DNA of 53,033 nucleotides, counting the filler, from Sphacelaria rigidula (lineage: Eukaryota): the NCBI GenBank assembly GCA_964200075.2. It is 4 parts of 4 records of this genome, joined end to end, with 100 filler letters (N's around TTAATTAATTAA, not from the genome) between each part and the next. Parts side by side here need not be neighbours in the genome. Positions count along the whole stretch, not along the records: positions 26,571 to 39,754 come from CAXNAA020003086.1; 3 more parts are not named here. One strand, written 5' to 3'. Every line of letters starts with the position of its first letter. Positions within the stretch are counted from its first letter, which is position 1. A model generated the notes under the pieces. It ran no database searches and had not been told where the DNA came from. It worked only from the letters and a program-made list of their open reading frames with translations. Below, one piece after another: positions 15,321 through 45,575 of this stretch. A program made the position numbers and the translations under genes.

Positions 15321-15379
15321 CGGCACTTCATTAGTACCAACCATTTCTTTCAACACATCCACACGTCGGACAGATTAGC

Positions 15380-16285: not shown

Positions 16286-16394
16286 CCCTTCAACTGCGAG
16301 GGTAGGCGATTTGTTGAATCGGCATCTTTCGCACCCGAGAAATGATGCAAAAATATACTAATTTAGCAGATCGCCAACCCTCGCTGTCGAAGGG
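16286..16394. mobile_element. 109-bp piggyBac-like MITE
   Basis: Termini CCCTTCAACTGCGAGGGTAGGCGATTTGTTGAA and TTAGCAGATCGCCAACCCTCGCTGTCGAAGGG form imperfect TIRs. TTGA flanks both sides. CCCTT ends with a TTAA-like TSD are piggyBac hallmarks. Confidence 0.65.
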
Positions 16395-16704
16395 TTGACC
16401 GTTTGACAGCGTGCATAAGTCATCTGTTGAATCGGCTTCAATTTCACTTTCAAAAAGCATGCATAACCAGATGGGCTCGTACCCTCGTGGCCAAGCGGTT
16501 AAAACAAATGGATTGGTTGATTTTTAAAGACAACGAACATAAATAATGTTGTGAACCATCCGACCATGCGAATGAGGATTTGTGTTGACTTCTTTCTTTT
16601 CGACCTCGAAGAGCAAGGCAGAACACCACAACCTAGTGATATGTTACGCCATCCCTTCAAACAAAACTGTAATATCATGGGCGACAATAGGTTTGCCAGC
16701 GGCG

Positions 16705-17030
16705 AGCTAGGCACATGACTTGAGTGAGCTACGAGCATGTGTTCCCGGGGTGAGCTACCGGGCCTAGCTCATCCACTCATGTGTCCCCCGGGTGAGCTAT
16801 GAGAGCTGCGTGAGCTACACGTGTTTGCCTTGGGTGAGCTATCGAGTGTAGGCCATCCACATATGCTTCGTTGGGTGAGCTGCAAGAGCTGCGTGAGCTA
16901 CACATGTTTTTCCTGGGTGAGCTACCGGATGTGGCTCAATCGCGCATGCTCTCCCTCGGTGAGCTATGAGACCTACATGAGCTACGCATGTTTACCTCGG
17001 GTGAGCCAGGAGGGCTACATGAGTTACGTA
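16705..17030. repeat. Same GAGCT minisatellite (block 2)
   Basis: Same unit family and orientation as 15380-15958, separated from it by ~750 bp that includes the small MITE. Confidence 0.88.
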
Positions 17031-20000: not shown

Positions 20001-21814
20001 GAGTACTACGTATGCCGCTACCAGCTCTCTTGACAATCGCAGCACCTCGTCACACGCAGACATCCGTTCGCTCTCAATCACAAAGCAAGACAAAGTTGCT
20101 GCGACCCGTCGTGCCAACAATGGAAACAAACCATCCATCCCATGTGCCGCCACTTTTCGCCACCGCTTGACCTATTTTCCCCTTTCGAAAACATGACAAT
20201 ATCCGACTTTCCTCAAAAGGCAGCTCGAGCCTCAATTCTAGACTCGGACCCTGAGGGGTTTCGCTCGTCTTGGAATATTTTCCCTAGTATCCCGGGACCT
20301 CCCATCGCCAACAGAAATATTTTAGTGTTCCAGATGGATCCTGCCCAGCTCTCTTCACCTGCACGACCGACACATGTCGAAGCGCCCGGTCCGAAAACTA
20401 CATTCCCCTGCATGCACACGCGTTCAGATAATAAATCCGTACTCATGACCCTCCATCGACACAAGCGACGACGCACCCTACTACCTGGAAGAAAACAAAC
20501 ACAACCCTGCTGATTAAACCGAGCCAAACCGAATGCTACAGACACCACCTCCACAGGGGCTTCACACCAACTACTACAGTACTGCTGCGACCAGCCGGAC
20601 AATATCGTGTATGTGATGTATATATTCGAACGCGGGAGAAAAAGGTCGATTGAGTACTCCCTATCGAGATCACGCATGATGACAGCGCACTGTAAATGTT
20701 CCGATGGGGCAGCACTGGCGGGTGGCTACGGCTTCCCCTCTGAACCATCCACACAAACGTACACAAGGGCAATTATTCGTGTAGGCCTGACTGCTATGAA
20801 TGAATCAACACGCAAAACACATGATCAATTTTTGAGCACCTCGTCCCGCAGCGGGTAATGCTACATAACTCACGAATGGGTTTCACAGGCGTGGGGCAGA
20901 GGAGGGGGAGGGGAAGGTTTTCCGATGTAGTTGTGATTCTGGCCAAGAGGAGATCGATTTGCGCAAATCGGGGAATACGATCCGTTAACCGCGTTTGTTA
21001 TGCGTTAAAACTCACCATGTGTTACAGTGTCAATCTACCTTATGACATCTCGTGATATCCATGCCGTGCTCTGCAGCGGTAGATATGGATCCCTCAAGCA
21101 TTATAGGGGAAAAAAAAATGCCGCATGAGAAAAACCACGTCTCCCTGAACGAAAGCTCCGAATAGTGAACAACAGAGTCGATATCTCAAGCTGAATCGAT
21201 CGCTCTTCTCCTCTTTGGGGCGATCCACGGTCTCTACCCAACTCTAGCGCCAAAGCACAGACAGGTCAGTGGCGAGTTGTGCTCAAAGGGACCCGGCCAA
21301 AGGTGGGTTAACTCGTCGGGTTCGACTGTACATACTGCAGGCCTGTCTACGCATCCTACCTTCCAGGACCACTCTTCTGATAATAACTCACTTCACTCCG
21401 CATACACAGTTTACGACACAGCTTACAAGATACAACACACAAAAAGAGACAGGCCGGCAATATATATTTGTTTATCATTTGTCCTCGACCCTACAATACC
21501 TGCCGAGTTATTTCGCATTTGCTCTCGTCTACAGATTACACACCTCTCTCTCTTCGCCCCCCAGAAGTCTATAGAGATACGACACATGCTAACCAGGGGG
21601 GTGCTTGTGTTTCACTCTAACGAAGATGCGGGCCACTGCCCCCCTCCCCACGTGAATTTTACACCCTTCAAACGCCCCACCTCCGAATCAGCCCCCATCC
21701 TCCCCGACACCTCCCTTTCCCTCAAACACACCACTGTACGCTAATTACATAAACACGCAACAAAAATGTCCATAAATCAGCTACCACTGACTAGCCCCCT
21801 TCAATCAGCGAGGG

Positions 21815-24800
21815 CTACCACATCGTAGCGGCTTCGGAGGCGGGGGTGAAGGCCGCCGCCACGCCTGAGCTTTTCGAAATCGCCGCGACCTCAGCCGGTG
21901 GGGCCAAGGACGAGGAATGGGACGGGCTTCTACGACCTTTCTTGATTAATGGCGTGGATTCCAACGTCCGCGATGACTCGGTTGTCACAACAGAAATATC
22001 TGTCACCCGATCTCTAGTCCGTTTTGAACCCAACGGAGCGCCGGCGCTGGAGCAGGGTGCATCACTCTGGACGGCAGCAAGATCGGGCTGCACCTGGCCC
22101 TGGAACGAGAACAAAGAAGCGACCGCCGCAGCTGCCACCTGTCGATCCTGTGCGGCCTGTCTATCGGCATCCTCCTGCGCCGCAGTAGCGGGCACCACCC
22201 GTCGTCCCCATTCATCCGTCCCTGCGCCCAGCGGTGACGATATTGCACCCTCCGTCGTCCACGGCTGTGCCACGGCATCCGCAGCGGCGGCGGCGATGAC
22301 GGGTGTAGAGAGGAGTGGATTACTCCTGGACACCGGACCTACTATTACCCCCCAGGGATTGCCCGCCACAGCAGACGCTACGGGGGGGGAAGGTTGGGTG
22401 TCGTTCTCGGAATGCTCGTCCAGAGGCGGAGTTGCTGTGCGCGGCGTTGCCACTTCCGTAGAAGCCTGCGATAATCGACTCGCTTTTTCGGCAACCGCGA
22501 CGGCAGCGGTGGCGACCAAGGGCGAGTCCTCGATGGACGTGACGACAGAGCGGGCAGGAGGCGGATGGCTTGTTGGTTTCAACACCGCCGTTGTCGGCGA
22601 CGCTAGCAGGTCTTCTGGCGGCAGGACAGCCCGCGGCGGCGACGGCGACGGCGACGGAGAGGAAAGCGTATCGCTTCTGCCTCCCGTCGCTGGGTCGCTC
22701 ATTTTTAACCTTTTGCTCGGTCGCGGTGAAGCCCTCTGCTTATCGCAGCGCGTGTCCCACGGATCAGACCTCGAAGTGGCGGCAGGCGTTTCTTCACTGA
22801 CCACGGAATCGGATATAACACGATGGCCGTGAACCGGGGAATTGTGACCGTACGATTCGCTCCCAGGCGACGGGCTCCGTTGCGGGAATACCTCGTGGGG
22901 TGCAGCATCGGCGGATGCAGTTTCGGCGGGCGCAGTATCGGCGGTCATCACAGTCGCATCATCCTCTGCAGTTTCCTGCAGATTGTCCATAGCCTCCACA
23001 TCGCGCAGCGCGGCGCACAGTCTATGGAGCCTCTCACCCTTCACGTCACCAGCCCCCTTGCCGGCGGAATGAGCCGACGACGATGCAGACGGTATTGGCG
23101 CATGCTCCGCGAGTTCTTTTGCTTTGGCCGGTGGTGGTTCGGAGGCGGGGGTGGCCTCCACAAACCGACCAGCCGCTGGTTTCTTGCCCATTGCAGCGTT
23201 AGCCGCCGCGGCCGCTAACGCCGCCGCACGAGCTGCTTCAGTGACAGGTGCTTGCCATCGGCACGAGTTCGACGCCGTTCGATCATCGCTACAATCAGAT
23301 TCTTGGGACGACGACTCTCCGCCCGTCGAAGCGGTCGCCAAGCTCGCATTTCGTCGCTTCGCACTTTTCGAAGACAAGCGCGCGACGGCGGCGGAGGTGG
23401 CGGTCGCCCGCCCCCCCGCTTGAGCGGTGGCGCGCGATCCATCCTTGGCATCTGTCCGCTGCGTCTTGAGCGATGTTGACTTGGCGTCGCCGCTGCTTGG
23501 AGAGCCCACGCCACCTGCGTCGCTGGCGCGAGCTGTCGCCGCCATCGCGGCTAGTTTGGTTCTCGCGTCACGTTGACGGCGATTCAAGGCTTTCCATCGG
23601 ATCTTGACCGCGTTTTCTGTGCGCCCCGTAAGGCGCTTTGCGATATCCGCCCATCGGTTACCAACTTCGCCCTATTATGAGAGCGCAAGCGGGATGACGT
23701 TGGCGGCAGCAGCGGTAGCAGCAGTAGCAGCAGCAGAGGTGAAACTTGGGCATACATCGAACATTGCGATAGTGACAAAACTAGTCCAAAAACGTGAGAA
23801 AAAGCCAGTCGCATCGGGAAATGATGGAAGGACGCCACAAGAACGAACGACGACGCGTGAAAAAAAATCGAACCCGCCAAACCGCTTGGGGGTGGGATGT
23901 TACGACAAAATCAACGGCGAACAGTGGACATTCCAAAAGTAGGCTATACTGGCGCGTACCTTGTACCAGAACTACTCAAGAGTGTTTTGCAAACCGTTGA
24001 GATATTTACGGTTAAACTACAATCACACCACCCTGTTCGTGTGATCTACACAGAAATGTCCCCCTAACAGGACAAGGAACGAGGAACGACAGTAGTGGAA
24101 TAGTGCAGGGTTTGAGGCACAGTCCCGCATAGGAGGGATCAGTAAAGTCGCGGTATAGTTTGTGCGAGAAGATGACACATCTGCGTGTAGGGATGATTGC
24201 CCTCCCCCCGCCCCCCTTTCCCGACCTCCGTCCCCCAACTGAAAGAACGGGAACAGCACACTAGGACTTGCGGGCCACCTGGTTTCCGTGTTACCTGGAG
24301 ACAGATGATGAGCTCGTCTTCTTCCGTGGTGTAACCGCCCTTCCGGACTGCTGGGTCAAGGTGATGGCACCAGCGCTCGCGGCATTGCTTGGACGTTCTT
24401 CCCTCCATGAACGACGCCACCTGTCAAACCAATAAAATTTCGGACGGGTGGGTGCAACATACCCAAGCGAGACAAGCGGACGTTGAGATGGGTCAATTGA
24501 CTTGAAAAAATCGCGACAAGATCGCAAACTCCAACTGGACATTTGACCTCGAGCGACCACATTCATAGCTGATGCCCATCGCATTCTCCTCTCCCCCGCT
24601 CGTCGCTTGTCAATGGTCAAACGACCAAGGCAAGCAACAAATGAGTACGCCTCCTCCCCCCCGTGCTCCGTCTCGAAAGGGATGCGTGGTCACTGGTCAA
24701 ATGACTAAGGCAAGCAACAAATGAGTACGCCCCCCCTCCCCCCCCCGTCGCTTGTTCTGTGTAGTTAGACATGATGCAGCTATTCCCAGCGGCGGTACAT

Positions 24801-25751
24801 ACTCTGGCGAGCTAGAGGCACACAGTACGTCGGTTTTAGCAAGGTACAATTTCGGACGACCATGTTCGGTGGCGTTTTTTTGCGGTCAGCTATCGTACGT
24901 CCGATGCCAACTTCAATGGCGGTGAATCCGCAAGATATGTCCGAATGCCCTCGGGTGGATCACTCCGCTCTCGAGGTTGATCAGCAAACAAGGCCAGTGT
25001 TTCTCAGCGAAGACATGCCGAGCTTCTGAGCAACCGACTCCATCGACAATTCTTGCACGTAGTGGCCATTTCTTACGTTGGAAGTATCGTGGCTTTGTCA
25101 TGAAGCTGTCACCCGTATGCGGAGACACAATCCAACAAATAAGTGACTTTTGTTCTTCTACAGCGTAATAGAAAACATCCCTCTGAAAAATGGAATCTCC
25201 ACCCAACACGGGATCTTACAAATTGGGGATGAGAAACCCGGAGGATTAAAATCTTCGTATCCACACCAAATCTTCGAAATATGGCTCCATTGCTTCACCT
25301 ACTGATAACTATTGACAACTGCTACACGCCATAGAAATTTGGATTTCGATTACCGAAATGTTGGGGCCCTAGGTGAAAAACGATTTCGGAACAGTTTTGG
25401 CGTCCGTTCGGACACCCGGACTTCCCCAAAATTGTGTTTTCACCTAGGACCCCAACATTTCGGTAATCGAAATCCAAATTTCTATGGCGTGTAGCAGTTG
25501 TCAATAGTTATCAGTAGGTGAAGAAATGGAACCATATTTCGAATATTTGGTGCGGATACGAAGATTTTAATCCTCCGGGTTTCTCATCCTCAATAAAAGA
25601 TCCATCCCCAATTTGTAAGATCCCGTGTTACCCGCTTTGTTAATCACGTACGCACCTGTCCCCAATTGCGAAAGCCTCGTTCTACCACACGTACTAGACG
25701 ATCATCCTCCTCTTGACTCCACTGCCCCTTCACCAGACCAGGTTTCAACAC
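21815..25751 (-). CDS. 3R-type (R1R2R3) MYB transcription factor, 5'-incomplete
   Basis: Phase-0 exons with GT-AG ends: 25751-25656 (VLKPGLVKGQWSQEEDDRLVRVVERGFRNWGQ; end of R1 and start of R2; not in the ORF track), 24420-24295 (VASFMEGRTSKQCRERWCHHLDPAVRKGGYTTEEDELIICLQ), 23671-21815 (GEVGNRWADIAKRLTGRTENAVKIRWKAL followed by a long Ala/Ser/Pro-rich tail to the stop). VLxPxLVKGxW before R2 parallels c-Myb VLNPELIKGPW, implying an R1 exon beyond the contig end. Confidence 0.9.
25205..25629. mobile_element. Foldback/MITE-type element with ~175-bp terminal inverted repeats in a MYB intron
   Basis: AACACGGGATCTTACAAATTGGGGATG... is mirrored by ...CATCCCCAATTTGTAAGATCCCGTGTT. The arms are near-perfectly complementary apart from a ~19-nt insertion in the right arm. 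ACCC flanks both ends (25201-25204 and 25630-25633), a candidate 4-bp TSD. Confidence 0.88.
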
Positions 25752-26470
25752 CTGCACATAGGTCGTAACACAAAACAAAAATATTAAGGAGAGAATGATG
25801 CTGACGTCCCCCAAGGTTCAGTTATTCCCGATCCCCTGGACAATCCCCAAGATCAGTCATTCCCGGCGACCAACACCTTGCTCGCTGCCTATATTAGCCC
25901 CCAATAAGAATGAATCAGTCTCTCTGGAACTAGCAACCAGTGTGTGCTACGCTCAGCATCCACGGCAGCTAGTCCTCCATCGGAGCTCAAGTGATCTCAA
26001 GATCAGCCTTGACGGATGCCGCGGTAGCCTTCCCCCTGCCCCCCCCTCTCCCAGAATCAGTAATAAGGAATGGGATAAGATATGTAAACGTTTCCTTGTG
26101 ATGTACGGGAGAAATATTATGAACGACAAAATGTTGGAGGTGACTCCATTAGGAGTAGAAACGGTGCTCCGTCTCGCAAGGGATGCGTGGTCAACGGTCA
26201 AACCACCAAAGCAAGCAACAAATGAGTATCCCTGCCCCCATCTCCCAAGGAAAGTGGCTCGTTTGAGGAAGCAAAATCTACGTGCCGAAGAAAATGACAG
26301 AAGTCATGCACAGCGAGCAATTGGGAACTCCCACACTTGGGATCGTGTTTGCCAATGTCGCCCATATGTGGCGCTATATGGTACTTTTCTTGGTGACAGT
26401 TTGGGGGCGGGGGGGGGGGGGGGGTACTCATGATCATGCTTTCCATAGTCTTAAGACCCTTTACCTCGCA

Positions 26471-26570: not shown

Positions 26571-27266
26571 AAACTGCCGTATGTTGGCAAGCACAGATTA
26601 TTGCACACGAATTATTGTTCAGCGGCCAATCTCGAAACCTCGAAGCCAAGCGAATCTGAAAAGTAGGCCAGGCTCCTCTCTGTGGGGTGACGCAAAATGT
26701 CCGAGACGTGTGTTGGCGGTTTTCCCTGTTTGGGGGTCAAAAAGTGGGTCAAACGTCCCCAAAGTGAAGAACCCGTGGGCCAAAAATCTGTTTCGCCATA
26801 CCATCCGGCCTAAATATTGAAATTGAAGGAAGGAATAGAGTGGACCAAATTTTCGGAGTCTCCATGGAGTCTGGTCTGGAACCATATCCCGAACAGTTTC
26901 ACGTTCGCTCCATTTCTCACGCCGATGTCTAACGTTTGCCTAGGTAACTGGCGAGCGGCCTCTATACGTTAGTGATGACCTAGGGCTGTCCTTCAGGGAC
27001 ATCAACGTGAAAATTTTGTCTCCAAGCTCTTGGTGCACGTCGGAAGAAATGGCTGCCGACGAAATTCGGGGTTTTCTTCCGCGGACCAGCTCGTCCTGCC
27101 GTCGCGGTAGTAGACCTTTCGACCAATCTGTCTCTCGTCGAATAGGAGCCATGATAAGCACGCTTTATGCAACCACGCTGTCCTTTCCCGCTCGTTCCAA
27201 ACAAAATCTTCCGCCCCACAGACAAACGGAGCGGCCACAGCTGTAGCTGGCTCAACACCGTGGCGG

Positions 27267-30200
27267 ATGCGGGGGGTGTCTCCACTCTCGTGCTTGTGCT
27301 GCTGGGGGGCATCGGGCTACACAGATGTCCCAAAAGATGCACCGGACGGTATTTACAAGCCTCCCGGTAACAAAAAAAACAGCTCCAACAGGAAAACACT
27401 TGACAGCTCGACCAAAACGGCGGTCGCTACTCCTTTGCCCTCTTCCAACGATGCATGCTGGGATTCCGACACCGGTAATCCGCTGGTGGACAACACACGA
27501 GTGCTGAGGCTTGTATGGTCATTTTCCAGTGCGGAGGCTTTTCTGTTCATTGCCGGAGTGTCACGACATTGGCGTCACGCATGGGGTGGTACGAATAACG
27601 GTAGTTTCCACGAGGATAACGGCAGTAATAGTGGTCGACCGCGGGCCACGGTTACAAGCCTCTACAGCGCTGTGCAATCCACGTCGTGTCTGGCGTGGTC
27701 CAAAGACAGCGGGTTACCATGGAATGAGAAAACAGCGGCCTATGCTGCTGCCCTCGGTGGGTTAGAACAGATCAAGTATGCAAGAAGCCAGGGTTGTCCT
27801 TGGGACGAAATGACGTGCAGCATGGTGGCCTCCACAGGACAACTGGAGCTGCTGAGGTGAAGAGTAATTATTGGCAAAAAGTACTCGTGAGTTGTTCGAT
27901 GAATCGTGTGCGTTTGATTCGATCTCTAGCCAACGTAAGTCGTACAGCGTATATATACACACTCCACACGGGATACCGTCTCGCGAAACATTGTCGATTG
28001 TGAAAGTTCATGTTGGTGGCTTCGCGCTTCTTTTCGCGCTTCTTCTCCGCTACTTCATGTGCTTCGGGTATCTCACTACCGATGTCCAATCCTGTGATCC
28101 AGTTCTGGTGAACTTATGTTGAGTTCGCGTGCGTGCTGTGGAGGATTGAACTGGATCAATTTCGCAAAAATATCCTTCTGTGGGAGTCAATCAACGCTAG
28201 TCTATGAAGTAGCACCATGTAGATTGTGGTCTCTGGGACATACGGAGGGTGAAGACTCGCTGTCACTTCTTTGTTTTTTTCCAGCCCTGTGTGTTTGCCT
28301 TAATGGTGCCGGCATCACTGGTGGCACATGTACACTCCCTTGAAAGGCTTTTAAAAGTAATAGGTAGGCAAAAGTCGTCATGGCGTGGTTATCAGTAGAT
28401 GAGGTATATATGGAACATTTTCGAGCCACTTTTGTCGGACAGTAAGAAGGCATGATTGATCGTGCCCGCTTGCTGTGTAGGAAATAATGCTCCGACCGCG
28501 CGAGTATGGGCGGCCAATGCTGTGGCAGCAAGGCCGTCCCAAAGACAAAATACATGGCAATACGCCACCCTTGGTTTGCATGGACCTTGAACGCACAGAT
28601 GGCTGAGAGACAACGGCTGTCCGTGGGATAAATACACATGTGCAGCGGCAGCGGGGGCAGGATACTTGAAGCTGGTGAAGTGGTGCAGGGCCAACGACTG
28701 TCCCTGGAGCAGATCGACATGTGAATGGGCTGCCGGGGGAGGACCGATCGAGAAGCCTGTGAGGTTAGTTTATCACACAATGGATCAAAACGCTCATGAG
28801 CGGCGTTCACATTGTAACCCGATGGATTCGCTCGCTGGGGGTACCCTTCGGTGTCCCTTGTATCTAACTAGAAAAGGTACAGAGTAGACGGCCTGGATGA
28901 TGATGCCCGATCAAAAGCGTGAGAAACTGCAGGATGGAAAATTGACCCTCTCTGGCAACATGGTGCTACTATGGAGGAAGATAACAAATAGGAATAAAAT
29001 TCACCTATCTTTTGTTTCCTCAGTTGTTATTTTCGTGGGAACACGCGATTAGCACGCGCGAACAACGTGATTCATTGACTGTGAGGTGCCTATGAATGCA
29101 TGGGAGGGACCCATATCGCTGTGATTGTGGACACCTATCCTCCACAAATATGCTCCGCTTTCGTTGCCACGCGCGTGACGTCGTCAGCGCTAGAAGGCTC
29201 AAACTGAGCAACAGTTTTGCAGTTGGTTGTGGTTGAGTGGGAGATGACAGCTCTATTGTACAAGCAAAGTACGTAAGCAATACAATCTTCCATCTCTTGA
29301 TTAACCCTTTTGGGACTGAAGCTCAGTAACAAGGGGTTCACCATGTATTAGTAAAATAATGATAGACAAGTCTGGGAGCGACCAGCCCAATCACGACGAG
29401 ACGAAATGTATCGACCACATCCGAACGCCCAGTGGAGGGGGGCTGTCGCCGGGAGTGATGTCACTGCAAAGTTGGTGTACCCTGTCTCTGGCCCACGAAA
29501 GAAGCCTTCGAAGCAGAAGAAAATTTCAATTGGTCGGGGCTCGGATTCCCGTTTTTTATTTACTTGCATTTCATGTAGGTCCAACCTCCCACCGCCCGGA
29601 TTGTTTTACTCACCATACTAGAGTAAAACCTAGTTGATAACACTAACACGCAGTGCTCGGGGGAAATTCGGGAATATATGTACCCTACTATATATGTGGT
29701 CACGTTCACAAGGCGGTTGAATATGGCAACGCTATGGGACGAGAGACGGAGCTAGAGACATGAGTTCTGCGTATCCCTCTGGTGAAGCAGTACAAGCGCT
29801 GGTGAGGTCGTATGTAATCGATGGTGACGAACAGGCTGTGTATAGGCAGCTGATCTCCGTCGCGGAGAACTGCCAAGAACATGTGAGGAAGTATGCAGCG
29901 GCAGCTGCTGCTGCATTCAGAAAGGCGTGCTGCACTGTTGTACTGTATCTGTGGCGCAACGCCCATGCCGTTCGAAGACAATTTGCCGCTTGCAACAAAG
30001 AGGGAAATCGCGGCCCAACCCGACCACAAAGGGCTGTGTGGCAAGGTGATGGGGATAATATCCAAGGCCGCACGTCGCGGGCGGCGGTTGTCACATCCTG
30101 TGGAAAGCTCTCCACGGCGACTCATACTGCTCGATACATTTGTACATTACCTGATGCGCACATCACCCGAATGCTAGTACAGACAGTTTGCACCTGCACC

Positions 30201-32934
30201 TGAAAATAGATTGGATGAAACTTTCGGTCTTCATCCAACCCTGCGGTTACATACATACGTGGATATTCAGCAACATGAAGCCACTGTTTCATGCATATTC
30301 AGGACACGTCATTCCTAACCAGCATCATCGGTCGTTCTGGAGGCCCAGTTCCAAAAGGGTCAACCCAAGTGTATCATACGGTATACGGTGTGACAGCCAG
30401 TGGAGTTAGGTACCGCTGAGTTATACCCTATTACTCGGCCATTAAAAATAGATTCGGCTGAATTATACGAGAATGAGTTAACTCGAGTTATGGTGAGTTG
30501 AGTTGTCCGACGTGTGTGATCATGCCTCATGATTACCGAACATAACACCCGCAAGAAACATACTGTAAACGTATGCTGTACGTAGTCGGTCATAATGATT
30601 CGGCTGCTCTTTGTCTAAGGGCTGTCGCGCAATGCATGAAAGGTACGCCGAGGGTAAGTGGCTAACGGTCCTCTATAGACCCCATCGACGGGTTTGTTTG
30701 CCACCTCGACGTCGACTCATCACGTCCTGGACCTGGAAGAATGTTATTTCAATATCATTCGTTTATTATTTTGCAGGACGAACATATGTCATACTGTATG
30801 CTGAATGTTTATTCTGATAATTTATATGTTGATCATCAGCACCGCAACTTCAATCGAGACGTGATCAAAGTGATCCTTCATTAGTACGCATACTTTTTCA
30901 TTGAGTCGGAAGTTTGTCAATAGCTAGTTATCTAGGTTTCAAGTATTAGAATATTTGATGCAAAAATATTGATGCGACAAAAGTAGACGATGATCTTGTA
31001 CATGAAAATTCTGATATAGAGGCTCTAACATGTGTAGGTCCACCTGCTGTAGTTGGCATCAAATTGCAACAGCCCTTCACACCCGTGAACATATCTCGCC
31101 CTTTGCTGGACAACCGTTTTGTATGTGTTTTTGGGAGTCGATTTCCATTTCAATGTCGCTTATTCTTCAACGTGTTGAATGATCCTCAAAATTGAGCGAA
31201 ATATCGTCAGGTGTTGATTGCTAGTGACCACCGTCGCAGTTGGATCGACACGACACTTGATCGTGCCCAGTCTCAACACACTATGTACGGGTCACCACAC
31301 TTTACTCAGTTATTCTCTTTACTCGTGTGTCATGGTGACCAAACCTGACATCCGCAAAAAACATACTGTACATGGGCTCCATAGTTGTGTTCATGTGTAT
31401 GTTTCGTGTATGTTTCATGGATCCACCTGTTGTAGGTGGCTTCGAGCACTGACAACCCCTCACACCTGCCGAGCATTTGACTGAACGTTGCAACTATTGC
31501 GTTGCGTGCGCTACATGAACGCGCTGCTGCACTGAAAATAGCTATTGGGGCGTCGGTTGAGCGCGGTGAAGCGAGGTTCACCGGAAATACCAGGGGGTTG
31601 AGTTGGGTTGGATAATACGGAAGTGCGAGTAAGTACGAGGACGTCACTATTATTTCTTTTCAATGTACTTTTATCAATTCGGGCAACGTGACTATAATTG
31701 CTTTTAAATGTACTTTTGTCAATTCGGGCAACGTGACTATGATTGCTTTTCAATGTACTTTTATCAATTCGGGCAACGTGACTATAATTGCTTTTAAATG
31801 CACTTTTGTCAATTCGGGCAATCATCAATCTACTACTGCAGCAGCTGATATCGTGCCCGAGGACGTGATGGCTTCCGCTTGGCTGGCGGCGTGTGCCGTG
31901 TGTATGGCGTCAGACAGCACGCCGGTTCCACGTTGCCGGCTCACTTCACTTGCACCCTACACGTGAAATGTTTGTTCGCAGGCATGTCGTGGCCGCTCGA
32001 CCGCCTGCTGACCCTGCCCCACTTGCCATCGGACCTTGGACATTGTGGATAGTAATATAGAAACATGTTGAAAATATATATTTGCGACCTTTCCTCTTCC
32101 GGCTCTCTGGTTCTGTAAATTTCGAACCAAGGTGCCAAACATACCATACACGAGCCCGCTTGGCTGCACTTGCATGCTCCAATTCTGGATTGGTGGACAC
32201 AACCCGAGACCATGTTTTGTCATTTCGAATTGTACAGTTGACGTTCCAACAACCTCATCGATGTGGTTGTGTGTATTTCCATCGTTCGCCCACAACGTAG
32301 TAAAGGCAGCGAGAGGAGTCATTTTGCGACGTCAATCGTTCAAAATGGGTAAGCAGTACCCCGTTGGCCATTATTTTCATAATCTCGTACAGACAGCAAA
32401 AGTGGGCAAAATTTGGGCATATTTGGATACTCACAAGGCTCTTCTTTTCGCTCATCTCGATGAACGTGTTGGACTCATCCTCAACCTTGATTTTCCTAGC
32501 AGCTTGTTTGATGGGCTTGCTTTTATTGGACAAGATGCCGCCAGCTACTTCACACGTGTACCAGCAACGGAATGGACGAGGGAAAGTGATAAGACAGCAC
32601 CAAAACGCGAGAAAATCCCCGACTGTAGATATGATACCCCGCCCTATCGCTCAACTCTGCAGGTGGTGGACGATCAATCATGATATCGGCAAGGGCGGTG
32701 CTGACAATAGTACTGGCGGCGAGATGGAGTCTAGCAGGAGTGGCGCTGGGTGGGAAAGGGGAGTTGAAGATAAAGCGGTGGCTAAATTTGATTGGTTTGC
32801 CGTCGTAGCTAAGACGCATCAACAGCGTGTGCGTAATCAGATGAGGAACCTGATGGTGCTCAAGTGGTGCCGAAGGAATGCGTGCCCGTGGGATAAGAAG
32901 ACTTGTGTTAGCGCTGCGCAGAAGGGGCACCTCA

Positions 32935-33001
<67 letters not shown>

Positions 33002-36000
33002 TGTGTCTGTGTCTGTGTGTGCACGGGTGGTGCTGTAGGGTGTCAGGAATGAAATACGCACCGTATCGAAACCTACATGTCTCCACTGCCGCTAAAAAAA
33101 AGGCCTATTACAAGACGGACTTTGATCGTTCAAGGAGAAGTTGAGATAAGTACAATAGCTTTGCCTCAAGAGCGTGTTGGCTTTCATTTTCGTCCATATT
33201 CATCGAAATTGATCAAATTGGTCAATTTTTCTCCGCGTTGCTCGCAGAGTGAAAGTGAGGGACGTCTCTTCTATCTCTTAGCTCATTCTTAGCGCACTTT
33301 CTGCTACTGCATAGACAGTCTCCAGGCCATCCTTGGACAATGAAATGATTATCGTCCTTGTGGGCCCCAGTTGGGTCTTTCCAATGAGTCAATGGGCTAA
33401 AATCGAGGCACAGGGCCCACAGATGGGGTGACAATTTTGGCTGGCACGATTTTTGGACCAACCGGAGCCTCCCAATATACCAAAATTCGGCGTCATTTCT
33501 TGAGTCAGATGAGATGATCGAGTGAGAATTGAGTGGTCAAATAGCCGTGATTGGCCCACACATTGCGCCGCTGCCAGTCAGACAGCTACAGTCATCAATC
33601 GCTTGGGATACAGCAGCACCGTTCTGGCTCAGTTTGTTTGCCCCAACCTGCAAGCGTCCGCCTTGCGTGTCTTCTCCGATCACGGCACTCGACTACAACT
33701 GAAGTACCAAAGAAGACGCAACACACAGCTGCATAGTCGTCACGCAATCGTTTCAACTCTGTGTACAGCACTTTGATCCCACCCCAATTCTGTGCAGACC
33801 GAAACACGTCATGCAGCAGTACAACTGTTCAGGCACTCTCCAGCGCACATCACACCATGTTCGTCGTAGAGTGTATAGATGCACAACACCACAGCGACAA
33901 CTACAGCATAGAAATGATGGGTGAGTGTGGGAAGTGCCTTGTTCGTTTGACGGAAGACGAAATAGCCAACACACAACAACAGTGTGTAGACAGCACTAGG
34001 TGCCAACAAACACAATTTTCCTCATATTCTGTAAAGACAAAGGCAGCGACAGTAAGGCAACTGCCGCAATCCCAGCTGAGACCAAACCGTCTTCGCAAAG
34101 ATTCAAACACACCACAGCGCAGTGACAGCTACAGCACATGAGAGGGCGTGAGTGTGTTTGTGCTGCAGCACGGCGAAACAGCACATGTCCCATGTGACAG
34201 TTCTTCCCCTCATTCCACACCATCCTCAATTTTTGCCGAGTGCCGATTTTTAAATGCTCGGGGATGATCGCGCTTCGCGCGAAAATCTTTTAATTCACGT
34301 CGAGTTACCCCTTTGAGTCACCCCCATCTTAGGGTTAGAATGAAAATAGTACGTGGGTACTTTCAGCAATGCAGGGACTTCTTCTTCTTCGTCTTCTTCT
34401 TCTTCGTCTTACCTCCAACCTCTCGCCTTCCTCGGAACAAGTTCATGGTCCAAGGTATCAACCCATCTCTCTCTTCTCTGTCTCTCCCCCGGTACACGCC
34501 TTGCATTTTCGCATAACGGATTAGATCAGCACTCCCGCACCGCGCCGGCTGCAGTCCAAGACACTCAGCGAAGCAGCGAAGCAGCCTCTTTTTGCCACAC
34601 CCATTCTCGCGCTCAACCATGGGACCACGGAAATCAGAGAATTTTGCAGAGACCGCCACTCCTCACGCATCTGGCGGTAACCGAACCTGCCTCTTTTCTG
34701 CGCTAGTGGTGCTTGTTGTACCTCTGCACCACCCGGTGAACGCGGCTTGAATAATTCCACAGATTGAAGGCGCCTGACACGCCGTGCGCCATCTCTCAAA
34801 TCCTGTTGCAGGTATTCGCTCATGGATTCTGATCTGTTGAGCTGTTCCTGACAATTTTGTACACTGCTTCGAGCTGCTTAGATGAAATCTCCGGCCTACG
34901 CATAGACGTTGCAGGTTGAAAAATATGAATGTTTGATTCATGTAATATCCAGGTGTTGCAGTGGTGCAGGGGCCACGGCTGCCCATGGAACAAAGACGTG
35001 TGTGACGCAGCGGCTATGGGAGGTCACCTGGACGTCTTGTGGTGGTGCAGGGCTAACGGGTGTGAGTGGAGCGATGCAACCTGTGTGGCGGCCGCCTACG
35101 GTGGAAACCTTCGCCTCCTCAAGTGGTGCAAGGATAATGGATGTCCGTGGCAGGCGGAGGCTATTTGCCAATATGCTGCATGGAAAGGTCACCTGGAAAT
35201 TCTACAGTGGTGTGTGATGAAAGGCTGCAAGTGGAGCAAGGTCATGTGTGAGGGAGCGGCTCGAGGTGGGCACCTTGAGGTGAGGGCGGTGTGTGCATCT
35301 TGAGGGAAGGTGTATGTGTGCCGGTGGAAGTGTGCATTGGAATGATATGCCATGTACTGAAGCTTAAGAAGAGGGGACAACCAAGTGAACGTCTACGCAT
35401 TCGCCGAAGTTCTTCGTCTAAACAGCTCGAAGCGATGTAAAATTGTCTACAATAGCTCGGCGGATGAGGAATGGCCCAGTGTCTACATGAGCGAATATTT
35501 GCAGCAGGATTTGAGAGATCGCGCACGGTGTTCCAGCCATGTGAATTCTGTGGAATTCAACAAGCCGTGTTCACCTCAAGGGGTCATGTCCACTGCGATT
35601 CCCAGCACCTTTTTTTCATATTGTTCCGAAAACCCACGCCACGTGTCACCACAGGGGCATTTTCATCAGTACAAGAGTAACAATGTATAGCAGGACAAGT
35701 ATCGTACCATGTTAGCACCGTCCGCCTGACTCTATACCACTTAGTGCACGTGTCTCATGTGGAACGTTTTTGCGCATGGATCGTATCGTACTTCTTCAGG
35801 GCTAGGTTGGTCGTCCTTTGACCGCCGGGTTGGATTGTCTGTTGAATCGGCACCAATTTCACCTGAAAAATGAACGAGGCAAGACCGTTATGATCAACCC
35901 TGTCAGCCGAAGGGATGCAGGCAGTGCAGACTGTAGCAGCCACGCGGGGAATGTCTTATGTAAGATGATGCTCGGGCGTCGCCGCTTGTGCTGTCGCGGC

Positions 36001-37852
36001 GCTCGGCACACGTGAACAGAACCTTGCGTGTACATAGCCTGCACATATATGCTCCGCCCGCCTGGGCTACAAGCGAGTTGGGCGGCACATGACATAATCT
36101 GCCTGGCGTTGCAATTGCAGCTCGTTGCGTCAGACAGTTCACTGTTACAGCACAGCATAGTACGTCGTTGTATAGTAGAGTAAGTCTACATGTAGCGGCA
36201 CGCTCGGGGACCAAAGAAGCCGTACACGATGACTTTGCATGACGCTTTCCCTCGGCTGGTCCTTGAAATCACCCATCGGTCCGCCGTCACTAGCAGCTGA
36301 GCAAACTTATCGGTGTCTTGTGCAACAAAGCACGCATAAGGAGGTTCGACGGCGATTGCTTGCATGTTACCAACACTCTGCTCTCTAGTGTACACCCGTG
36401 TGGTTGCTCCAATATTTGTTCACCTTCAGCGAATAGAGCGGCTCCTGATCCTGGTTCATCCACTGGCTTCCAGGGCAAGGAAGCAAGGTTCGGACGAATA
36501 ATCGTCGGTCCAAATCACCAAATCCACGGTTTTTTAGGTCTGATTACTCTGAAGAGATGAAAACGCTGCTCGCTGGTCAAACATGTATCCACGCCTTTTC
36601 TGCGCCATTCCACGTGCGTGGAGTGCGCGTACGCGATTGCAACGCTGAAAACAAGGGCCGAGGGTTGATTCGTATGGTACGAATCAGTTACACGAAAATC
36701 AAGAAAATCCCACACGAATTATTAATTCGTCCGACCCTTGAAAGGAGGCACTGTACGCTTCGTGTATTTTCCACACCCTGGACAAGGAACTACACTGTCA
36801 AAATATGTACTGTGTAAAGCATCAACTATTGTGTCTTTTGCAATAGACAATATATCTCATACGGTACGAAGTAAACTTTTCGACGGTGTAATCTATTGTC
36901 CGGGGTTTGGTGTTTTCGCGGGAGCTTGATAGACTTGTTTCGATTTCACTCTTATGGCCCGTGTCTAGGGTCCAAGCAATAGTAGAGAACAATAATGTTT
37001 TACCGGAGGGTGTGTGCATATTTGAACGCATTTGTGTGGGTGCACGAGCTACCCTACTGCGTCGTGCTGCAGTACACCACAGGATAGTGTAGCGCTGACT
37101 GACAGGGAGTACAATTACGGTCGAGGCAATATATCGCAGTTAAGAGAGGGTGGAATGAGTGGCGGCCTTGAACGATCAACCCCTTTATTGCGAGGGTGGG
37201 TCATGCGGGTCTTGTGCACTCATTTTTCAAGCGAAAATGATGCCAGTTCCACAGATAACACAAGAGGACGATCAAAGGATTCATTATTCATAGATGCTGC
37301 ATCCGATGTAGCAGGCCAAGCCAGCAGCACAACACCCCGAATATAGCGGTACGCCCCCCGATGAACTTTCCCTTTCCGAACTCTCGGGGCGACTTGTTGT
37401 CTCTTGAGCAGCAGGCTATGGTGGATGTTGGTATCATCCTGAGCTATCATCAGTTCTATGTTCTCGAAAATTGCTCATATTTGCGTGCATTCGCATTTTG
37501 CGCCATCGAAAGGCGTTCCCATGATTCAGCCCTCCTTTCTCTCCAAATGCACAAAATACTTTGCTGACCGCCACGAGCATGAATGTCATCGTATCATCAG
37601 GTGCTCAAGTGGTGCAGGGCAAATGGGTGCCCGTGGGACGAAATGACCATTGCATGGGCAGCATATGCACGACAAGCAGAGATACTGGAGTACTGCAAGG
37701 CCAACGGCTGCCCTACGGGAGAATTCGCCAAGGAATGCATTTTGGCCATAGAGCAGGGTACGCTATCGGACGCTTCAATTATGACGATAATGTTTTCGGG
37801 GAACGCCACGTGGTTCAGGGAAAAGGCCTCACGCAGTGGGGCTGATGATTAA
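27267..37852 (+). CDS. Ankyrin-like repeat protein (WCRxNGCPW..TC..AA..GHL repeats) with F-box-like N-terminal motif
   Basis: Five exons with compatible phases: 27267-27856 (start codon tentative; LRLVWSFSSAEAFLFIAGVSRHWRHAW, GCPWDEMTC), 28599-28763 (WLRDNGCPWDKYTCAAAA; phase 2-2), 32663-32936 (..VLKWCRRNACPWDKKTCVSAAQKGHLK; phase 2-0), 34953-35279 (VLQWCRGHGCPWNKDVCDAAAMGGHL..; phase 0-0), 37601-37852 (VLKWCRANGCPWDEMT..stop). All boundaries are GT-AG. Confidence 0.88.
31643..31821. repeat. 45-bp tandem repeat, ~4 copies, in ankyrin intron 2
   Basis: Unit GTGACTATAATTGCTTTTAAATGTACTTTTGTCAATTCGGGCAAC, with units starting at 31688, 31733 and 31778 plus a diverged first unit. Confidence 0.95.
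32937..33020. repeat. (GT)n microsatellite starting at the splice donor of ankyrin exon 3
   Basis: CTCAAG|GTGTGTGT... about 32 units, then GTCT variants. Confidence 0.98.
34735..35575. repeat. Inverted repeat pair (arms 34735-34910 and 35388-35575) flanking ankyrin exon 4
   Basis: For example, 34782-34824 versus the reverse complement of 35486-35528 matches at 39/43 nt, and the complementarity continues collinearly over ~180 nt. Confidence 0.92.
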
Positions 37853-38599
37853 GGAAAATATGTCGCTTCTTTTGCATGTTTGTGGAATATACAATACCTT
37901 TGGTTAAAAACAGCAGTATCTCTCAGCGTGTGTCCTCGCTTTGCAGACGTTTTTTCGGAGAGATTGGTTTCTGGGGGCTATTCGTGCGATGTTGGTCGAT
38001 GCCGTTCTCCATATCCATCGAAGCGTATTAAGGCTGTCAAGTGGTATGAGAAGAAGTTTGGAGAAACTGGAGCGATTGAAAAAATATAAGATGAGAGAGT
38101 CATCATTTCCCCCTCTTTTTTTGGCGTGTTCAAACTTGATTATCAAGAGTATCTCTGCTGTATAATGTGTGTTTGCTGCGTTCAATCGTTGTATGAAGAT
38201 GTGTGCTTAACGGTAGGGTTGCCATATAGTCAAGAAATAGGCTGTAGTTACCATGTAGTTGGGGCGAAGCAAGAGGTAAGAATGTAGGTTATATATAGAT
38301 GACAAGGCGGGGAACACGGATGTCGTTTGAGGGGCTGGTTGTCCTCGTTGTCCTGGTTGAATAGTTGCGCTCCCTTTAGTTGTGTATTTCGTGACCGGCG
38401 GGCACTTCCTGAATGCAATTTGATGACGTGCGCACGTATCGAGGCTGCCGGGTGCTCATTGTCATCAAGGGAGGAGGGAAGATCCATGGCGTTGGTGCCC
38501 GTACGTTTGTTTGGTCAAACCTGGCAACGTTTCCACACTAAAGTAGTCAGCGTCAGAAGTTTTCAGAATTCGTAGTTGTTGTTGAATTTTTCTTCAGTA

Positions 38600-39250
38600 A
38601 TATTCTTCATTACTACTTGAATGTGCCAGCGCGGGTAGATTTAGGTGAAAGCGTAGGCCGCGCTCAAGCTGCAGTGCCCAAGTTGGTGTTTTTGGGGCGA
38701 TACGGACTAGATACTCCGCTCATCAGGAGGGTGTCATTGACCGTTTTTGGTCCAATAAAAACAGTTTCCCGGCTCTTCCGCAACGAAACGATAAATATTC
38801 CGATAAATGAATTCGTAAACAATTCTTCACAACGATCGAAATTGTGTTTTCCTCCTATACTGCACAGACGTCAGTCTAGCATTTTCTGCGGATGGCCTCT
38901 TTTCGGGGTTTCCCGCATAAGATTTTCCATGAGCACTCGAAAGTGCTAGCGTCGACAGTTTCGGCAAAATAAGCAGACCGTACTCAAATCACAATGCCTA
39001 AGTTGGTGTTGTGGGGGCCATACGGCATAAAGACCCCGTTCATCACAAGGGTGTTATTGACCGCGAATGGTCCGAGGAACATCGTTTTCAGGCTTAAGCG
39101 CAGTGATCACGTGGAATTTCAAAAAAATAATCCTCTTTGCGTTTTCACTTATATGATCGGGATCGAATCGGTCCACCGAAAATGCCGCAAACCTAAAACT
39201 TAGGGTTGCACTTTCGCAGGGCCCCCGAAGATCGATCAAGCCCGTAAGTC
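38600..39250 (+). repeat. Interspersed repeat with internal duplication; homologous to 47635-47960
   Basis: AGCACTCGAAAG.GC.AG.GTCGA...GGGGCCATACGG.AT.AAGACCC.GT.CATCA..GGGTGTTA.TGACC occurs at 38930-39065 and 47646-47780. A diverged copy lies at 38670-38750. Confidence 0.7.
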
Positions 39251-39754
39251 ACTTGATGTTGATCGATATTTTTTCTTTGAAAATATTTGTCAAGAGGATA
39301 AAAATATCTCCAGATGCCCATTTTTGGCCCCCGAAACAAATTTGGGAAATCTTTGAGGGACTAAGAAATCACGAATTCTGCATACTTGTAACGCTGACTA
39401 CTGTAGTGCGAAGTTTTGAAGTATTGTCCGACGAGAGATGCCCCATGCCCGTCATTCCAGTGGACCCCCGTACAATACCACAGAGATCGGACGGTAGTAG
39501 AGGCGTAGCAACACAAAAGCAACTTTTTGCGTAACCGACGTACAAGCACGGCCCGTCTTTTCGAAATCGTATTTAATCTCCGCCCGTTGAAGCTGTCCCC
39601 CGCGCCCATGGTGAGACACCCGTGAGGCAGTGTAACCATTGAACAACAAATTGTGCGAATTGAGGTTTAACTTTGAGATAAGGTTCATGCCTAAAACAGT
39701 GCTTTCCCCACACTTTCAACGATGGTGCCCAATGACGTTTTTGTCGGCCTATTG

Positions 39755-39854: not shown

Positions 39855-40141
39855 CCGAAAACTGAACCCTGAGAAGAGACATCCGCAGCAACTCAGGATT
39901 AATTTTCAAATTTTCAAATAAATCCTGAGTTGCTGAACACCCCAAAGGGTTGATTCCACACTCAGGGGTATGAAACGGCACTAGACACCCTGCCCCATAA
40001 CGACCAAGCTTACAGAAAACAGCCGTACCGTGCGTGGGACAAATATCGTAAGTGAGGCGATGGTGAACGCCGTAAACGCCCGCGACAGCGCTGGTGATGT
40101 CAGCTCCTTCACGAGGGTGAACCAAGACTACGAGGAGCATT

Positions 40142-40407
40142 TGGAGGCGGACGGAGGAGCCGAGACACCAGTCGACCTGGCTTATGATGATGCGAAAGGG
40201 CGGGAGTCGGCCGCTCAAGCAGCTGCTACGAGAACTTGACAAAATGGCCACCCAACGTGAAGCTTGCGTTCGCTCGCGCAGGTACACCACCGTTGTGTGG
40301 CCATTATGTCGAGACCCTCGTAGCGTCTGCATGAGTGGCCCACTTCAGCCCTTCCACGCCATCTTTAGCCAGGTCGACAGGGGTCTCTGTTCCCCTGTTC
40401 GCCTCCA
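40142..40407. other. Long imperfect hairpin (inverted duplication), candidate hairpin-RNA/miRNA precursor
   Basis: 40142-40258 is complementary to 40290-40407 with an ~30-nt loop. The outer ~90 bp is ungapped, for example GTCGACCTGGCT / AGCCAGGTCGAC and TGACAAAATGGCCACCCAACG / CGTTGTGTGGCCATTATGTCG. Confidence 0.75.
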
Positions 40408-42419
40408 CGCATCTAGGATTACTGCGTATAGTTCACATTCATCGGGAACTACTGTACTTTCTCACAGTATGCAAACGTACACACACGGGCATGCTCACAC
40501 TTTTGCTACAGACAGTAGTACCGTACACAACACTCACTACAGGAAGTATACAAAACTGTCTACGGACAGCACAGTCAGTGCAACAACAGCACTACAACAG
40601 TACAAATCTCAGCTGTCTCAACTCAATAGTGCTGTACGGCACACCGACATGTGCAGGACTTGTGAAGGACTTTCGGGCGCCGAGGTGCACTGCCCTTGTA
40701 CCCAACGCTGTGAACTGTGCCGGGTTCGTACCCGGAGGCTGTGTTGACGACACTGTGTGTGAGTTGTCGTCCCATCTATTCTGGACGCCGGTCTACACCT
40801 CGCCGTATACGTCGGCGCACCAGCCGGGGTCACACAGGAGGAGGGTCAACACAGGAGTTTTTTTCTTCATTTTTTGTTTGTTTTCAGTACTCCACCTTTC
40901 TTCTGCAGTGCTTGCCTTTATATTTTATCGCGAGAGGGGTTCAGCAGTCCTTTTCCCTCGTCGACCGTTAAGTCGAATATACTGCTGTCGCGTATTCAAC
41001 GGGACGGGGACAGCATAAACAACTCAAGTCATGCTAGGATAGGACGGGGGGTATTGTGGGCCGTTGCTTCCACTAAATTCAACTTCGAATCGATTTTAGC
41101 AGCAACGATCTTTAGAACGGGCGTGTTGCCGATAAACAACGCTTATTCATACTGCTTGACGCCATTTCACCCAAATACACGCGCACGGCGAGTGTGTCGG
41201 ATTGTCCGAAACATCCATGAGTCTGTTTCCCCTGGAATTAAACACCCAACTTATGGTAGCACGGCTCTGTATGTACTCTCCTACGGTAACACCGCATGGG
41301 TGGGCGCAGAGTACAAGCGCAGTGAAGCACGACGCGACCTGTACCTTTTGAACTCATGACACCGACCACGTGGCATTCGGAACAGAAAATACAAAACCCT
41401 GAAAAGTTTGCCCCCGTCCACACCTACGTGGTGAAAAAAATAAAAACAAACCTGGCGTTTAACCGTAAACAATCCAGTCGTTTCTCGCTGTTATCCCTGA
41501 GTTTAGATTTTTTTTCCGAAACTCTCTATTATATCTCAAGTATGGTGTACGCTTTGAAAAAGATCCAGACGCGATGGATGCCGGAGCCCGTGCAGATTGG
41601 GAAAAGCTTCAAAAGGAGCCGCAGAAGTTTGCGTGCATTGCTATGGACAGTTGTCGAATGCGTTTGATATACAAATATATTTTGGTCACAAAATATAGTG
41701 ACAGAAGAGGCGACACGGTATATATGCTTTCTTACACTTATCTGGCCACCGGTGCGGGACCTCCCATCCCCTTCACAGCATGTGATATATCTTGACTTAA
41801 TATCACGACGACAGAAAAAAGCGGGTCGATATGCGCCGTATGGTACCCCTGTGATCACCGGTGCTGTGCTACCTGTACCCTGAACAATACGATATGTTCC
41901 AATATGATAATACGTCGTATTGGAGGCAGCGCAAATACTGTCCCTTTTTATCCTCGGAGGCATTGAAGCAACAGCATATATTTTCCGGGTCATGATCGCG
42001 AAGGACTGCAGAACAACATATATTGGACACGCATTTGCTCCGGGAACACAACATCTAATACACATTGTGCACACCGATTGTGTATGTACTGAAGTGTCAA
42101 TATATATATATATATATATATATATATTGAGTCGAAGCGAAGCGTAGCATATTGTTAACATGATATGCATTCAACGCAAACCATGCAAAAGTAATTGCTT
42201 TTCTAATATAGATATTGCGCACGCCCATCGCATAGCTATTGTGCAGCCAATATATATTGAACACACTCGCGGAAGAACATATTGAGCGTTTTCGGCATGT
42301 GGTGATACATCTTTGAATGGCGCCCGCGAACATACAAATGCCCATTATACTTATTCCAATACACTTTCCAATTTACATGTTGGAAATCAATATATATATA
42401 TATATACAAGCCGCACGGA

Positions 42420-42906
42420 ACCCGGGGCTTCGCCCCGCTCCCGTCCGTCTTTTTCGAGGGTCTCGGTGTTTCTACCTTGCCAAGCCCTCGTAAGAATGGA
42501 TCCTCTCTCGAAATGTCCATCTTGCATATAAAACAAAAACACACGTGAACTCCTCCAGGATTGCGGGTATGAACGACGAGCAAAAGTGGGTATCTAAGAC
42601 AGTAGAGCGCCCCAGTCCCGCCCGTCTTCTTGGAGAGTCGCGGTATTCTTGCCTTGCCAAGCTCTCGTGAGAAATGATTCTCGGTTACAATTTCATATTG
42701 CAAAGCTTGTTGATCATGTGCTTAGTCGGTGACTCTGCGGTGCCCACTGCTGTGTGTCTGTATCTACTCTACTGCCCCAAATCCCTTCGGTTCTTGCCTT
42801 TTTACTACGAGTAAAATTATGTGATTCCCTTTTTTTCCCTGCTCCCTTTGTTTTTTAAAGGTCGGGAATCTCTTTCTGTGCTTTGCTTTTGTTTTTTGTT
42901 TCTTCT

Positions 42907-42983
<77 letters not shown>

Positions 42984-43160
42984 TTTATATTTTATTCACG
43001 TCTTCGTCTACTATGTCGTCATGTTCGACTTTTCTCTGCTCCTTCGTTTTTTTTAACGAATGTTTCAGTTTTGCTTTTCTTGCGTACGTACGTCTATCAT
43101 GCGACCACGGCTGGACCCATGGGTGGTCAGTCAAAGAGCGACAATCAATCAATCAATCGA
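42420..43160 (+). mobile_element. Probable 3' end of a non-LTR retrotransposon/SINE-like element with (CAAT)n tail
   Basis: Ends ...GACCACGGCTGGACCCATGGGTGGTCAGTCAAAGAGCGACAATCAATCAATCAATC. 43000-43160 is homologous to 51920-52067. The same GCGACAATCAATC terminus occurs at 14770-14803 and 44688-44700. Short tandem-repeat tails are typical of some LINE clades such as RTE. No RT ORF is visible. Confidence 0.55.
42908..42979. repeat. (TAT)n microsatellite
   Basis: Perfect ATT/TAT run of ~24 units. Confidence 0.98.
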
Positions 43161-45309: not shown

Positions 45310-45575
45310 GGGGCAGGGGATGTACTGATGCTCTTGCATGTCGTAGTCGTGTAACCATTGACCTCGCGTCTCTACAAAGCGGGACGGAGCACGCTGGGCT
45401 TTCGCCGGACAAGGCTCACCATTAATCATCAAGCGCGGAGCGCTGTGATGTGTCTGGCGAGTGGCACGAAGGGTGTGCTTCATCCCGCTAAGATCGTTCG
45501 GCCCGACCGGTACTGATTATTCTGCATTCGGATCACAGCCTCCAATGAGCTGCTTCACTTTCTGGTATCGTCACT
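45310..45575 (+). repeat. Partial copy of the same interspersed repeat
   Basis: ACCATTGACCTCGC..CTACAAAGC.GGACGGAGCACGC and CATCCCGCTAA..TCGGCCCGA..GTACTGATTAT are shared with 49880-50125. Confidence 0.8.

Follow-up and report, generated by a model that had tools for sequence, protein, structure and literature searches.

We analysed a 53,033-base stretch of the genome of the alga Sphacelaria rigidula (assembly GCA_964200075.2; hereafter, the window), in which an ankyrin-like gene carries an intronic inverted repeat around one of its exons. The window consists of four unrelated pieces of about 13.2 kb with N spacers between them (1–13186, 13287–26470, 26571–39754 and 39855–53033), and the gene sits in the third. 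A first-pass annotation had claimed that each internal exon of this gene is bracketed by its own inverted repeat. Our tests bore this out for exon 4 (E4), whereas exons 2 and 3 (E2 and E3) scored at the level of shuffled sequence. We conclude that the E4 arms are probably an old DNA-level inverted duplication or repeat pair, which has been decaying neutrally and brackets the exon by coincidence. A DNA-level scar was among the options raised in the annotation, and it gave the best fit to our results: the antisense strand of the arms is equally stable, E4 is part of the dominant mRNA, and the repeat went undetected at the homologous exon of a relative.

Exon E4 (34953–35279, plus strand) is 327 nt long, or 109 codons in phase 0-0, and encodes about 3.3 ankyrin-like repeats of the GCPW type (Pfam Ank_4, E 2.9e-07). 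The left arm (34735–34918) lies in intron 3 and ends 34 nt before the E4 acceptor; the unpaired spacer between them (34919–34952) is the 3' end of the intron, with a ..TCCAG acceptor whose joint was present in RNA contigs. The right arm (35378–35575) lies in intron 4 and starts 98 nt after the E4 donor, behind an unpaired spacer (35280–35377) that forms the 5' end of that intron and begins with a GTGAGG donor. All coordinates refer to the plus strand. The best local alignment of the two arms matched at 144 of 201 columns. When 27000–36500 was compared with itself by blastn, one strong minus-strand pair was found (34735–34910 with 35388–35575; 72.1% over 190 columns, E 5e-23). The next-best inverted matches in this region were 13–18 nt long with E = 3.2, and the strongest around E2 was a 13-mer (E = 3.2). 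A repeat finder placed the cores of the E4 pair at 90 nt with 80% identity and 30 nt with 83% identity.

We compared the flanks of seven internal exons of the window: E2, E3, E4, two exons of a MYB gene, and two of RPL26, the last gene having been located via a scan for K/R-rich open reading frames (ORFs). Sequence upstream of each exon was locally aligned to the reverse complement of the sequence downstream, and compared with shuffled sequence. For E2 and E3, flanks of 300–700 nt and stringent, EDNAFULL-like and lenient scoring were used. Controls for E2, E3 and E4 were 200 dinucleotide shuffles and the direct orientation, and for these exons the alignments were supplemented by chains of collinear inverted 7- and 8-mers and by RNAduplex. 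The E4 flanks scored 85 against 13.5 ± 1.7 for shuffles (0/200 reached the observed value) and 14 in direct orientation; their chain of collinear inverted 8-mers had length 10 against 2.9 ± 1.3 (0/100 shuffles). This check, which the annotation had proposed on a genome-wide scale, set E4 above its controls and left the six other exons among theirs. With 700-nt flanks, E2 scored 13.0 against 13.5 ± 1.7 (125/200 shuffles reached it) and E3 scored 17.5 against 13.8 ± 1.7 (9/200; direct orientation 16.5), while E3 with 400-nt flanks scored 11.5 against 12.1 (126/200). The 8-mer chains were 4 for E2 (3.0 ± 1.1 in shuffles, 31/100 reaching it) and 4 for E3 (3.2 ± 1.1, 34/100), and for RNAduplex of the E2 and E3 flanks 83/100 and 71/100 shuffles, respectively, were as good. 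Weaker versions of the same geometry had been reported at MYB and RPL26; the flank scores of both MYB exons (25656–25751 and 24295–24420, minus strand) and both RPL26 exons (4152–4279 and 3329–3470, minus strand) lay inside the shuffle range. The proposed exon-by-exon stem system fails because only one of the three internal exons of the gene, and one of the seven in the window, had flanking complementarity above shuffles. A stem for every exon would have hinted at a novel mode of exon definition, based on RNA structure, among introns that are long and filled with repeats. Our tests gave this no support, and they caution that short collinear blocks which the eye picks out beside exons need not exceed chance.

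The positions of the E4 arms relative to the splice sites imply that pairing between them would enclose a loop of about 460 nt holding E4 and both splice sites. In the minimum free energy (MFE) fold of 34700–35620, the arms were paired around E4 (−407.5 kcal/mol; z = −8.3 against 20 shuffles). The sense-strand duplex of the arms was computed by RNAduplex at −237.1 kcal/mol, which is 92 kcal/mol below the mean of shuffles (−145 ± 8). These predictions indicate that the arms should still pair in the pre-mRNA, in a stem that would be long and imperfect. The suggestion that exons sit in the loops of intron–intron stems therefore survives as a prediction for E4, one exon of seven, and not as an exon-by-exon system.

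The antisense duplex was predicted at −219.5 kcal/mol, or 96.5 kcal/mol below its shuffle mean. The transcribed strand thus has no advantage, because the gain in stability over shuffles was 92 kcal/mol for sense and 96.5 kcal/mol for antisense. The 181 aligned arm positions comprised 144 Watson–Crick pairs, 13 G·U pairs, 8 A·C mismatches (read on the sense strand) and 16 transversions. An excess of G·U over A·C had been suggested as a test for selection on the RNA, and we counted 13 against 8 as no sense-strand bias. With both strands equally stabilised, this mark of a selected RNA structure was absent, and nothing marks the E4 stem as being under selection. The arms differed at 37 of the 181 aligned sites (~20%), and by indels of 2, 11, 2, 1, 1 and 3 nt. 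Ongoing gene conversion, which had been offered as a process keeping the arms complementary, is unsupported because of these 37 differences.

A functional account would hold that the stem between introns 3 and 4 has been kept to bring the E4 donor and acceptor together, giving a 327-nt circle, control of skipping, or both. We consider it unlikely. The fold that pairs the arms around E4, and a duplex about 92 kcal/mol better than shuffles, count in its favour, as do features of the exon itself: being in phase 0-0, E4 can be skipped with the reading frame intact, and a circularised E4 would, as computed from the sequence, have an open frame with three Met codons and no stop. Against this account stand the lack of sense-strand bias in either stability or G·U/A·C counts, the divergence and indels of the arms, and the other exons of the gene, which have no such stems.

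The RNA evidence bears on the same question. We compared Logan contigs with the third piece of the window, using two DNA runs (X1 and X4) and two runs (X6 and X7) taken as RNA from their spliced contigs; assembled contigs of this kind lose rare forms. In X6 as in X7, the dominant spliced contigs included E4; the depth where E3, E4 and E5 are joined was 267–352. The exon is thus constitutive in the main contigs, which argues against a switch, and neither an E3–E5 skip joint nor an E4 back-splice joint occurred among the 15 splice joints listed for X6 and X7, with 181 further joints lying beyond those 15 and rare forms being lost from contigs. In favour of a switch, unspliced contigs at 34523–34980 and 35302–35718 had a depth of 5–7 in both RNA runs. 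The arm regions are slightly over-represented in unspliced RNA, since other unique intron bins had depths of 0–1.4.

Flanking reverse-complementary sequences are described as promoting back-splicing as well as the skipping of exons in animals, including nematodes (PMC8330042). Repeats of 30–40 nt are given as enough for circularisation in animals, and in the account of plants in the same review only a small minority of circular RNAs (circRNAs) have complementary flanks, a further point against a functional stem (PMC9860190). Like the inverted Alus of mammals and the reverse complementary matches (RCMs) of C. elegans, such as those of zip-2, the E4 arms lie near splice sites and are predicted to loop out the exon. 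They also resemble the short RCMs of C. elegans that are described as unrelated to transposable elements (TEs; PMC8330042), in that no TE copy of them was present in the window. They differ from animal circularising flanks in being a single case without sense-strand bias, seen in sequence and contigs with no back-spliced or skipped product among them, and in that a degenerate test of a relative's homologous exon gave no sign of conservation. The E4 case is a further instance of a known configuration and not a new system. A literature search on circRNA in brown algae found no relevant paper among those listed.

That the E4 stem works as a lineage-specific switch in this stramenopile-like alga, either back-splicing E4 or tuning its in-frame skipping, is a reading to which we give very little credence. 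If it were true, the product would be a stop-free, Met-containing circle of 327 nt with an endless ankyrin-repeat frame, and the arms would be non-TE complementary sequences derived from local inverted duplication. The practical value of E4 is small; it offers a concrete and easily assayed candidate for asking whether intronic complementarity leads to back-splicing in this algal lineage.

We sought the repeat at related loci. ORFs running through the arms were compared with 5.8 billion proteins and 1.84 billion representatives, and they matched only the same locus in another record (P0024, 97%; P0025, 99%). Three residues differed outside the left arm, and a further change, at 35571, would turn an A-U pair into A·C. 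The other strain differs at 39 of 4088 nt, or about 1%, and these changes are as expected from neutral divergence of that size. Another Logan assembly contained P0007, a 285-aa ORF that reads through a homologous exon 69% identical to E4. Of the exons of the gene, E4 is specifically its closest match; the first and last codons of the two agree, the homologous exon is followed by a GTGAGG-like sequence, and its translated flanks showed no similarity to the flanks of E4 in the window. To compare the two P0007 flanks (282 and 246 nt), both were back-translated to base-probability profiles, and the first profile was aligned with the second in reverse complement. The inverted score was 51.8 against 50.6 ± 8.1, a value reached by 20 of 60 shuffles, in a test that relies on degenerate back-translation and on an orthology with E4 that is unproven. 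The same procedure applied to the window's own E4 flanks gave 95.5 against 57.2 ± 8.1 (0/30 shuffles), with the direct orientation also high (76.6). Comparison of these sequences suggests that the arms are younger than the E4-type exon and the introns beside it, because a homologous exon with identical boundaries exists without a detectable repeat. This again speaks against a stem maintained for its function.

More distant comparisons identified the family and said little of the locus. A metagenome scan with E4 returned 10 loci (32–54% identical; host GC 0.32–0.65), which are family members and not orthologues. None of the 10 had a tight inverted repeat around the match, a result that is uninformative for the E4 locus given their non-orthology; in three of them (L004, L005 and L009), inverted pairs occurred elsewhere or kilobases from the match.

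Mobile elements could also have produced the configuration. One possibility is that a single element with long terminal inverted repeats (TIRs), of the Pack-type or foldback kind, delivered the ankyrin exon, splice sites included, to an intron of a paralogue. Were this so, 3.3 repeats would have been added in frame, a case of exon shuffling by a transposon. The arms do have the inverted termini that define TIR transposons, and the 841-bp unit, with arms of ~190 nt and an interior of ~460 nt, is like other arm-loop-arm units of the window; the symmetric 0-0 phase of E4, and the fact that E3 and E5 without it would meet in frame at an equivalent position in the repeat, would also suit such an insertion. 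No direct repeat of at least 6 nt was found within 45 nt of the arm ends, however, so no target-site duplication of that length was apparent, and searches of the window and of the protein libraries revealed no second copy. Moreover, a homologous exon with identical boundaries and no detectable repeat implies that the exon predates the arms. We therefore regard this origin as quite unlikely. Similarly, the E4 unit shares with miniature inverted-repeat transposable elements (MITEs), foldback elements and Pack-type TIR elements its two inverted arms around a short interior, and such units are frequent in the window, but it differs from them in lacking detected target-site duplications or other copies and in having as its interior a constitutive host coding exon older than the arms. 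Two ORFs running through the arms had no Pfam family at the curated cut-off, and an Rfam search of 26571–39754 at E ≤ 0.1 gave no match.

Introner elements are intron-associated repeats with inverted ends in algal genomes, whose ends match those of the intron and whose copies are alike across introns. By contrast, the E4 arms sit in two separate introns, at 34 and 98 nt from the intron ends, and we found no similarity among the four introns of the gene.

Alternatively, one abundant transposon family could have inserted twice, independently and in opposite orientations, once in intron 3 and once in intron 4. High-copy repeats crowd the introns (29211–30530, 33611 to about 34500, and 35811–37130, where DNA depth rises to 10^4–10^5 against a baseline of ~30), and the identity of the arms (72–80%) falls inside the 67–96% range of the window's direct-repeat pairs, which are mostly at 70–80%, as is typical of its old families. 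The bin containing the left arm (34491–34930) had a mean DNA depth of ~5000, an average that does not separate the arm from the rest of the bin, and this too would favour insertion of an abundant family. The value is, however, only 16% of that of the preceding, fully repetitive bin, which would fit a repeat ending near 34520–34560, and both DNA and RNA contigs break at 34482–34523. On these two grounds the left arm is probably single copy, with a high-copy element that probably ends near the contig breaks. The right-arm bin had depths of 32 and 27 in the two DNA runs, and is thus single copy at a likeness of at least 90%. The annotation had described the arms as unrelated to the dispersed repeats of the window; this was confirmed for E4, as no further copy of its arms was found in the 53 kb. 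In addition, two copies 460 nt apart and collinear over their full length would be unlikely unless the family were very abundant. Taken together, two such insertions are highly improbable.

We then asked how readily an exon could be bracketed by chance. A minus-strand self-comparison of the whole window yielded seven local inverted pairs at E ≤ 1e-3, with gaps of 154–1292 nt. Random placement of seven pairs gives 0.42 expected cases of an exon lying entirely within a loop for the seven exons, and P(≥1) = 0.35. One bracketed exon is thus unsurprising under this crude model. Units with the arm-loop-arm form of E4 were found at 47293–47996, 35814–37279, 38536–39408 and 25205–25629.

On our preferred reading, which we hold to be probable, the arms arose at the DNA level in one of two ways: a stretch of about 190 nt from one intron was duplicated as an inverted copy in the adjacent intron, as fold-back or template-switch repair could do, or an old low-copy repeat is present there twice, in opposite orientations. 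The arms would have drifted neutrally since then, and their position around E4 would be coincidental in a genome rich in short-range inverted repeats. The stem leaves normal inclusion of E4 intact, and back-spliced or skipped products, should they occur, would be incidental. The configuration thus finds its best explanation in DNA repair or repeat dynamics, of which it would be a neutral side effect. The repeat, the lack of a counterpart at the six other exons, the equal stability gain of the two strands and the inclusion of E4 were observed; how the arms arose, and that they evolve neutrally, is what we infer.

Several points weigh against this explanation. The arms begin 34 and 98 nt from the splice sites of the same exon, an arrangement near the one by which exons are circularised in animals, nematodes among them. 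The raised unspliced coverage at the arms could come from a structure that stabilises the RNA, or from splicing being slower near E4, and contigs cannot reveal rare isoforms such as back-spliced or skipped E4. The comparison with P0007 has limited power, and P0007 could be an orthologue or a paralogue of E4. Finally, the estimate of chance bracketing rests on random placement, a rough model, and the survey covers seven exons of the window.

The gene model was obtained from RNA contigs and homology. A single X7 contig of 2307 nt joined 27286–27854, 28597–28761, 32661–32928, 34951–35277 and 37599–38570; the same exon joints were present in X6, spread over two contigs. Each cut of the X7 contig can be moved 2 nt rightwards with no loss of fit, and this shift yields exon boundaries with GT..AG introns throughout. 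The exons, all on the plus strand, are E1 (ending at 27856), E2 (28599–28763), E3 (32663–32936), E4, and E5 (37601–38570). The frame of the joined exons stays open until a stop codon at 37850 in E5, followed by a 3' untranslated region to the end of the RNA contig. Five coding blocks were found by homology of the GCPW-type repeats. The named best relatives of the ankyrin-like exon occur in Phaeothamnion confervicola (at 55%) and in Chloropicon primus (at 45%), and a near-length protein search with E4 gave no match.

Homology had placed the E3 acceptor at 32841, and we rejected this site since the RNA contigs place it at 32663, 178 nt upstream of the ankyrin homology. These first 178 nt of E3 (32663–32840) encode a non-repeat linker, which a homology-only gene model would miss; a Pfam search of E3 found no family at the curated cut-off. 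At the E3 donor, the GT is the opening unit of a long (GT)n microsatellite that gives way to GTCT-like units (32937–33028), such that the 5' splice site borders a simple repeat, and 32929–33028 was skipped as a repeat when contigs were aligned to the piece. One joint, 28641 to 34951, had 21 letters on one side and single-copy depth in all four runs, DNA included; it is probably a paralogous ankyrin-repeat locus sharing a short identical stretch, and not a splice. Intron 2 holds a tandem repeat (31641–31821) with 91-nt blocks at 95.6%, encoding 'IDKST.KSN.SHVAR' units on the minus strand.

Three other inverted pairs of the window deserve description. In intron 4, an 88-nt pair at 72% (35814–35901 with 37193–37279) encloses sequence with a DNA depth of 2000–11000 against ~30, and is probably a TIR transposon. 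In the fourth piece, a 135-nt pair at 70% (47293–47423 with 47862–47996) has a 439-nt loop and thus the geometry of the E4 pair with a TE-like interior; its loop holds a dispersed repeat also found at 38928–39062 (74%) and 639–706. In a MYB intron (minus strand), 25205–25629 is a foldback-like element with a perfect 27-nt inverted repeat (25205–25231 with 25603–25629). Its interior is near-palindromic and has almost the same ORF on both strands; the element lies between two MYB exons and brackets none.

Three further genes were recognised in the window. Three exons of RPL26 were seen within 2828–4279 on the minus strand. The gene for eIF3 subunit E is represented by its N-terminal exon, at 11435–11767 on the plus strand (eIF3_N, E 3.8e-14), and the MYB gene spans 21818–25751 on the minus strand, with a long Ala/Ser-rich last exon.

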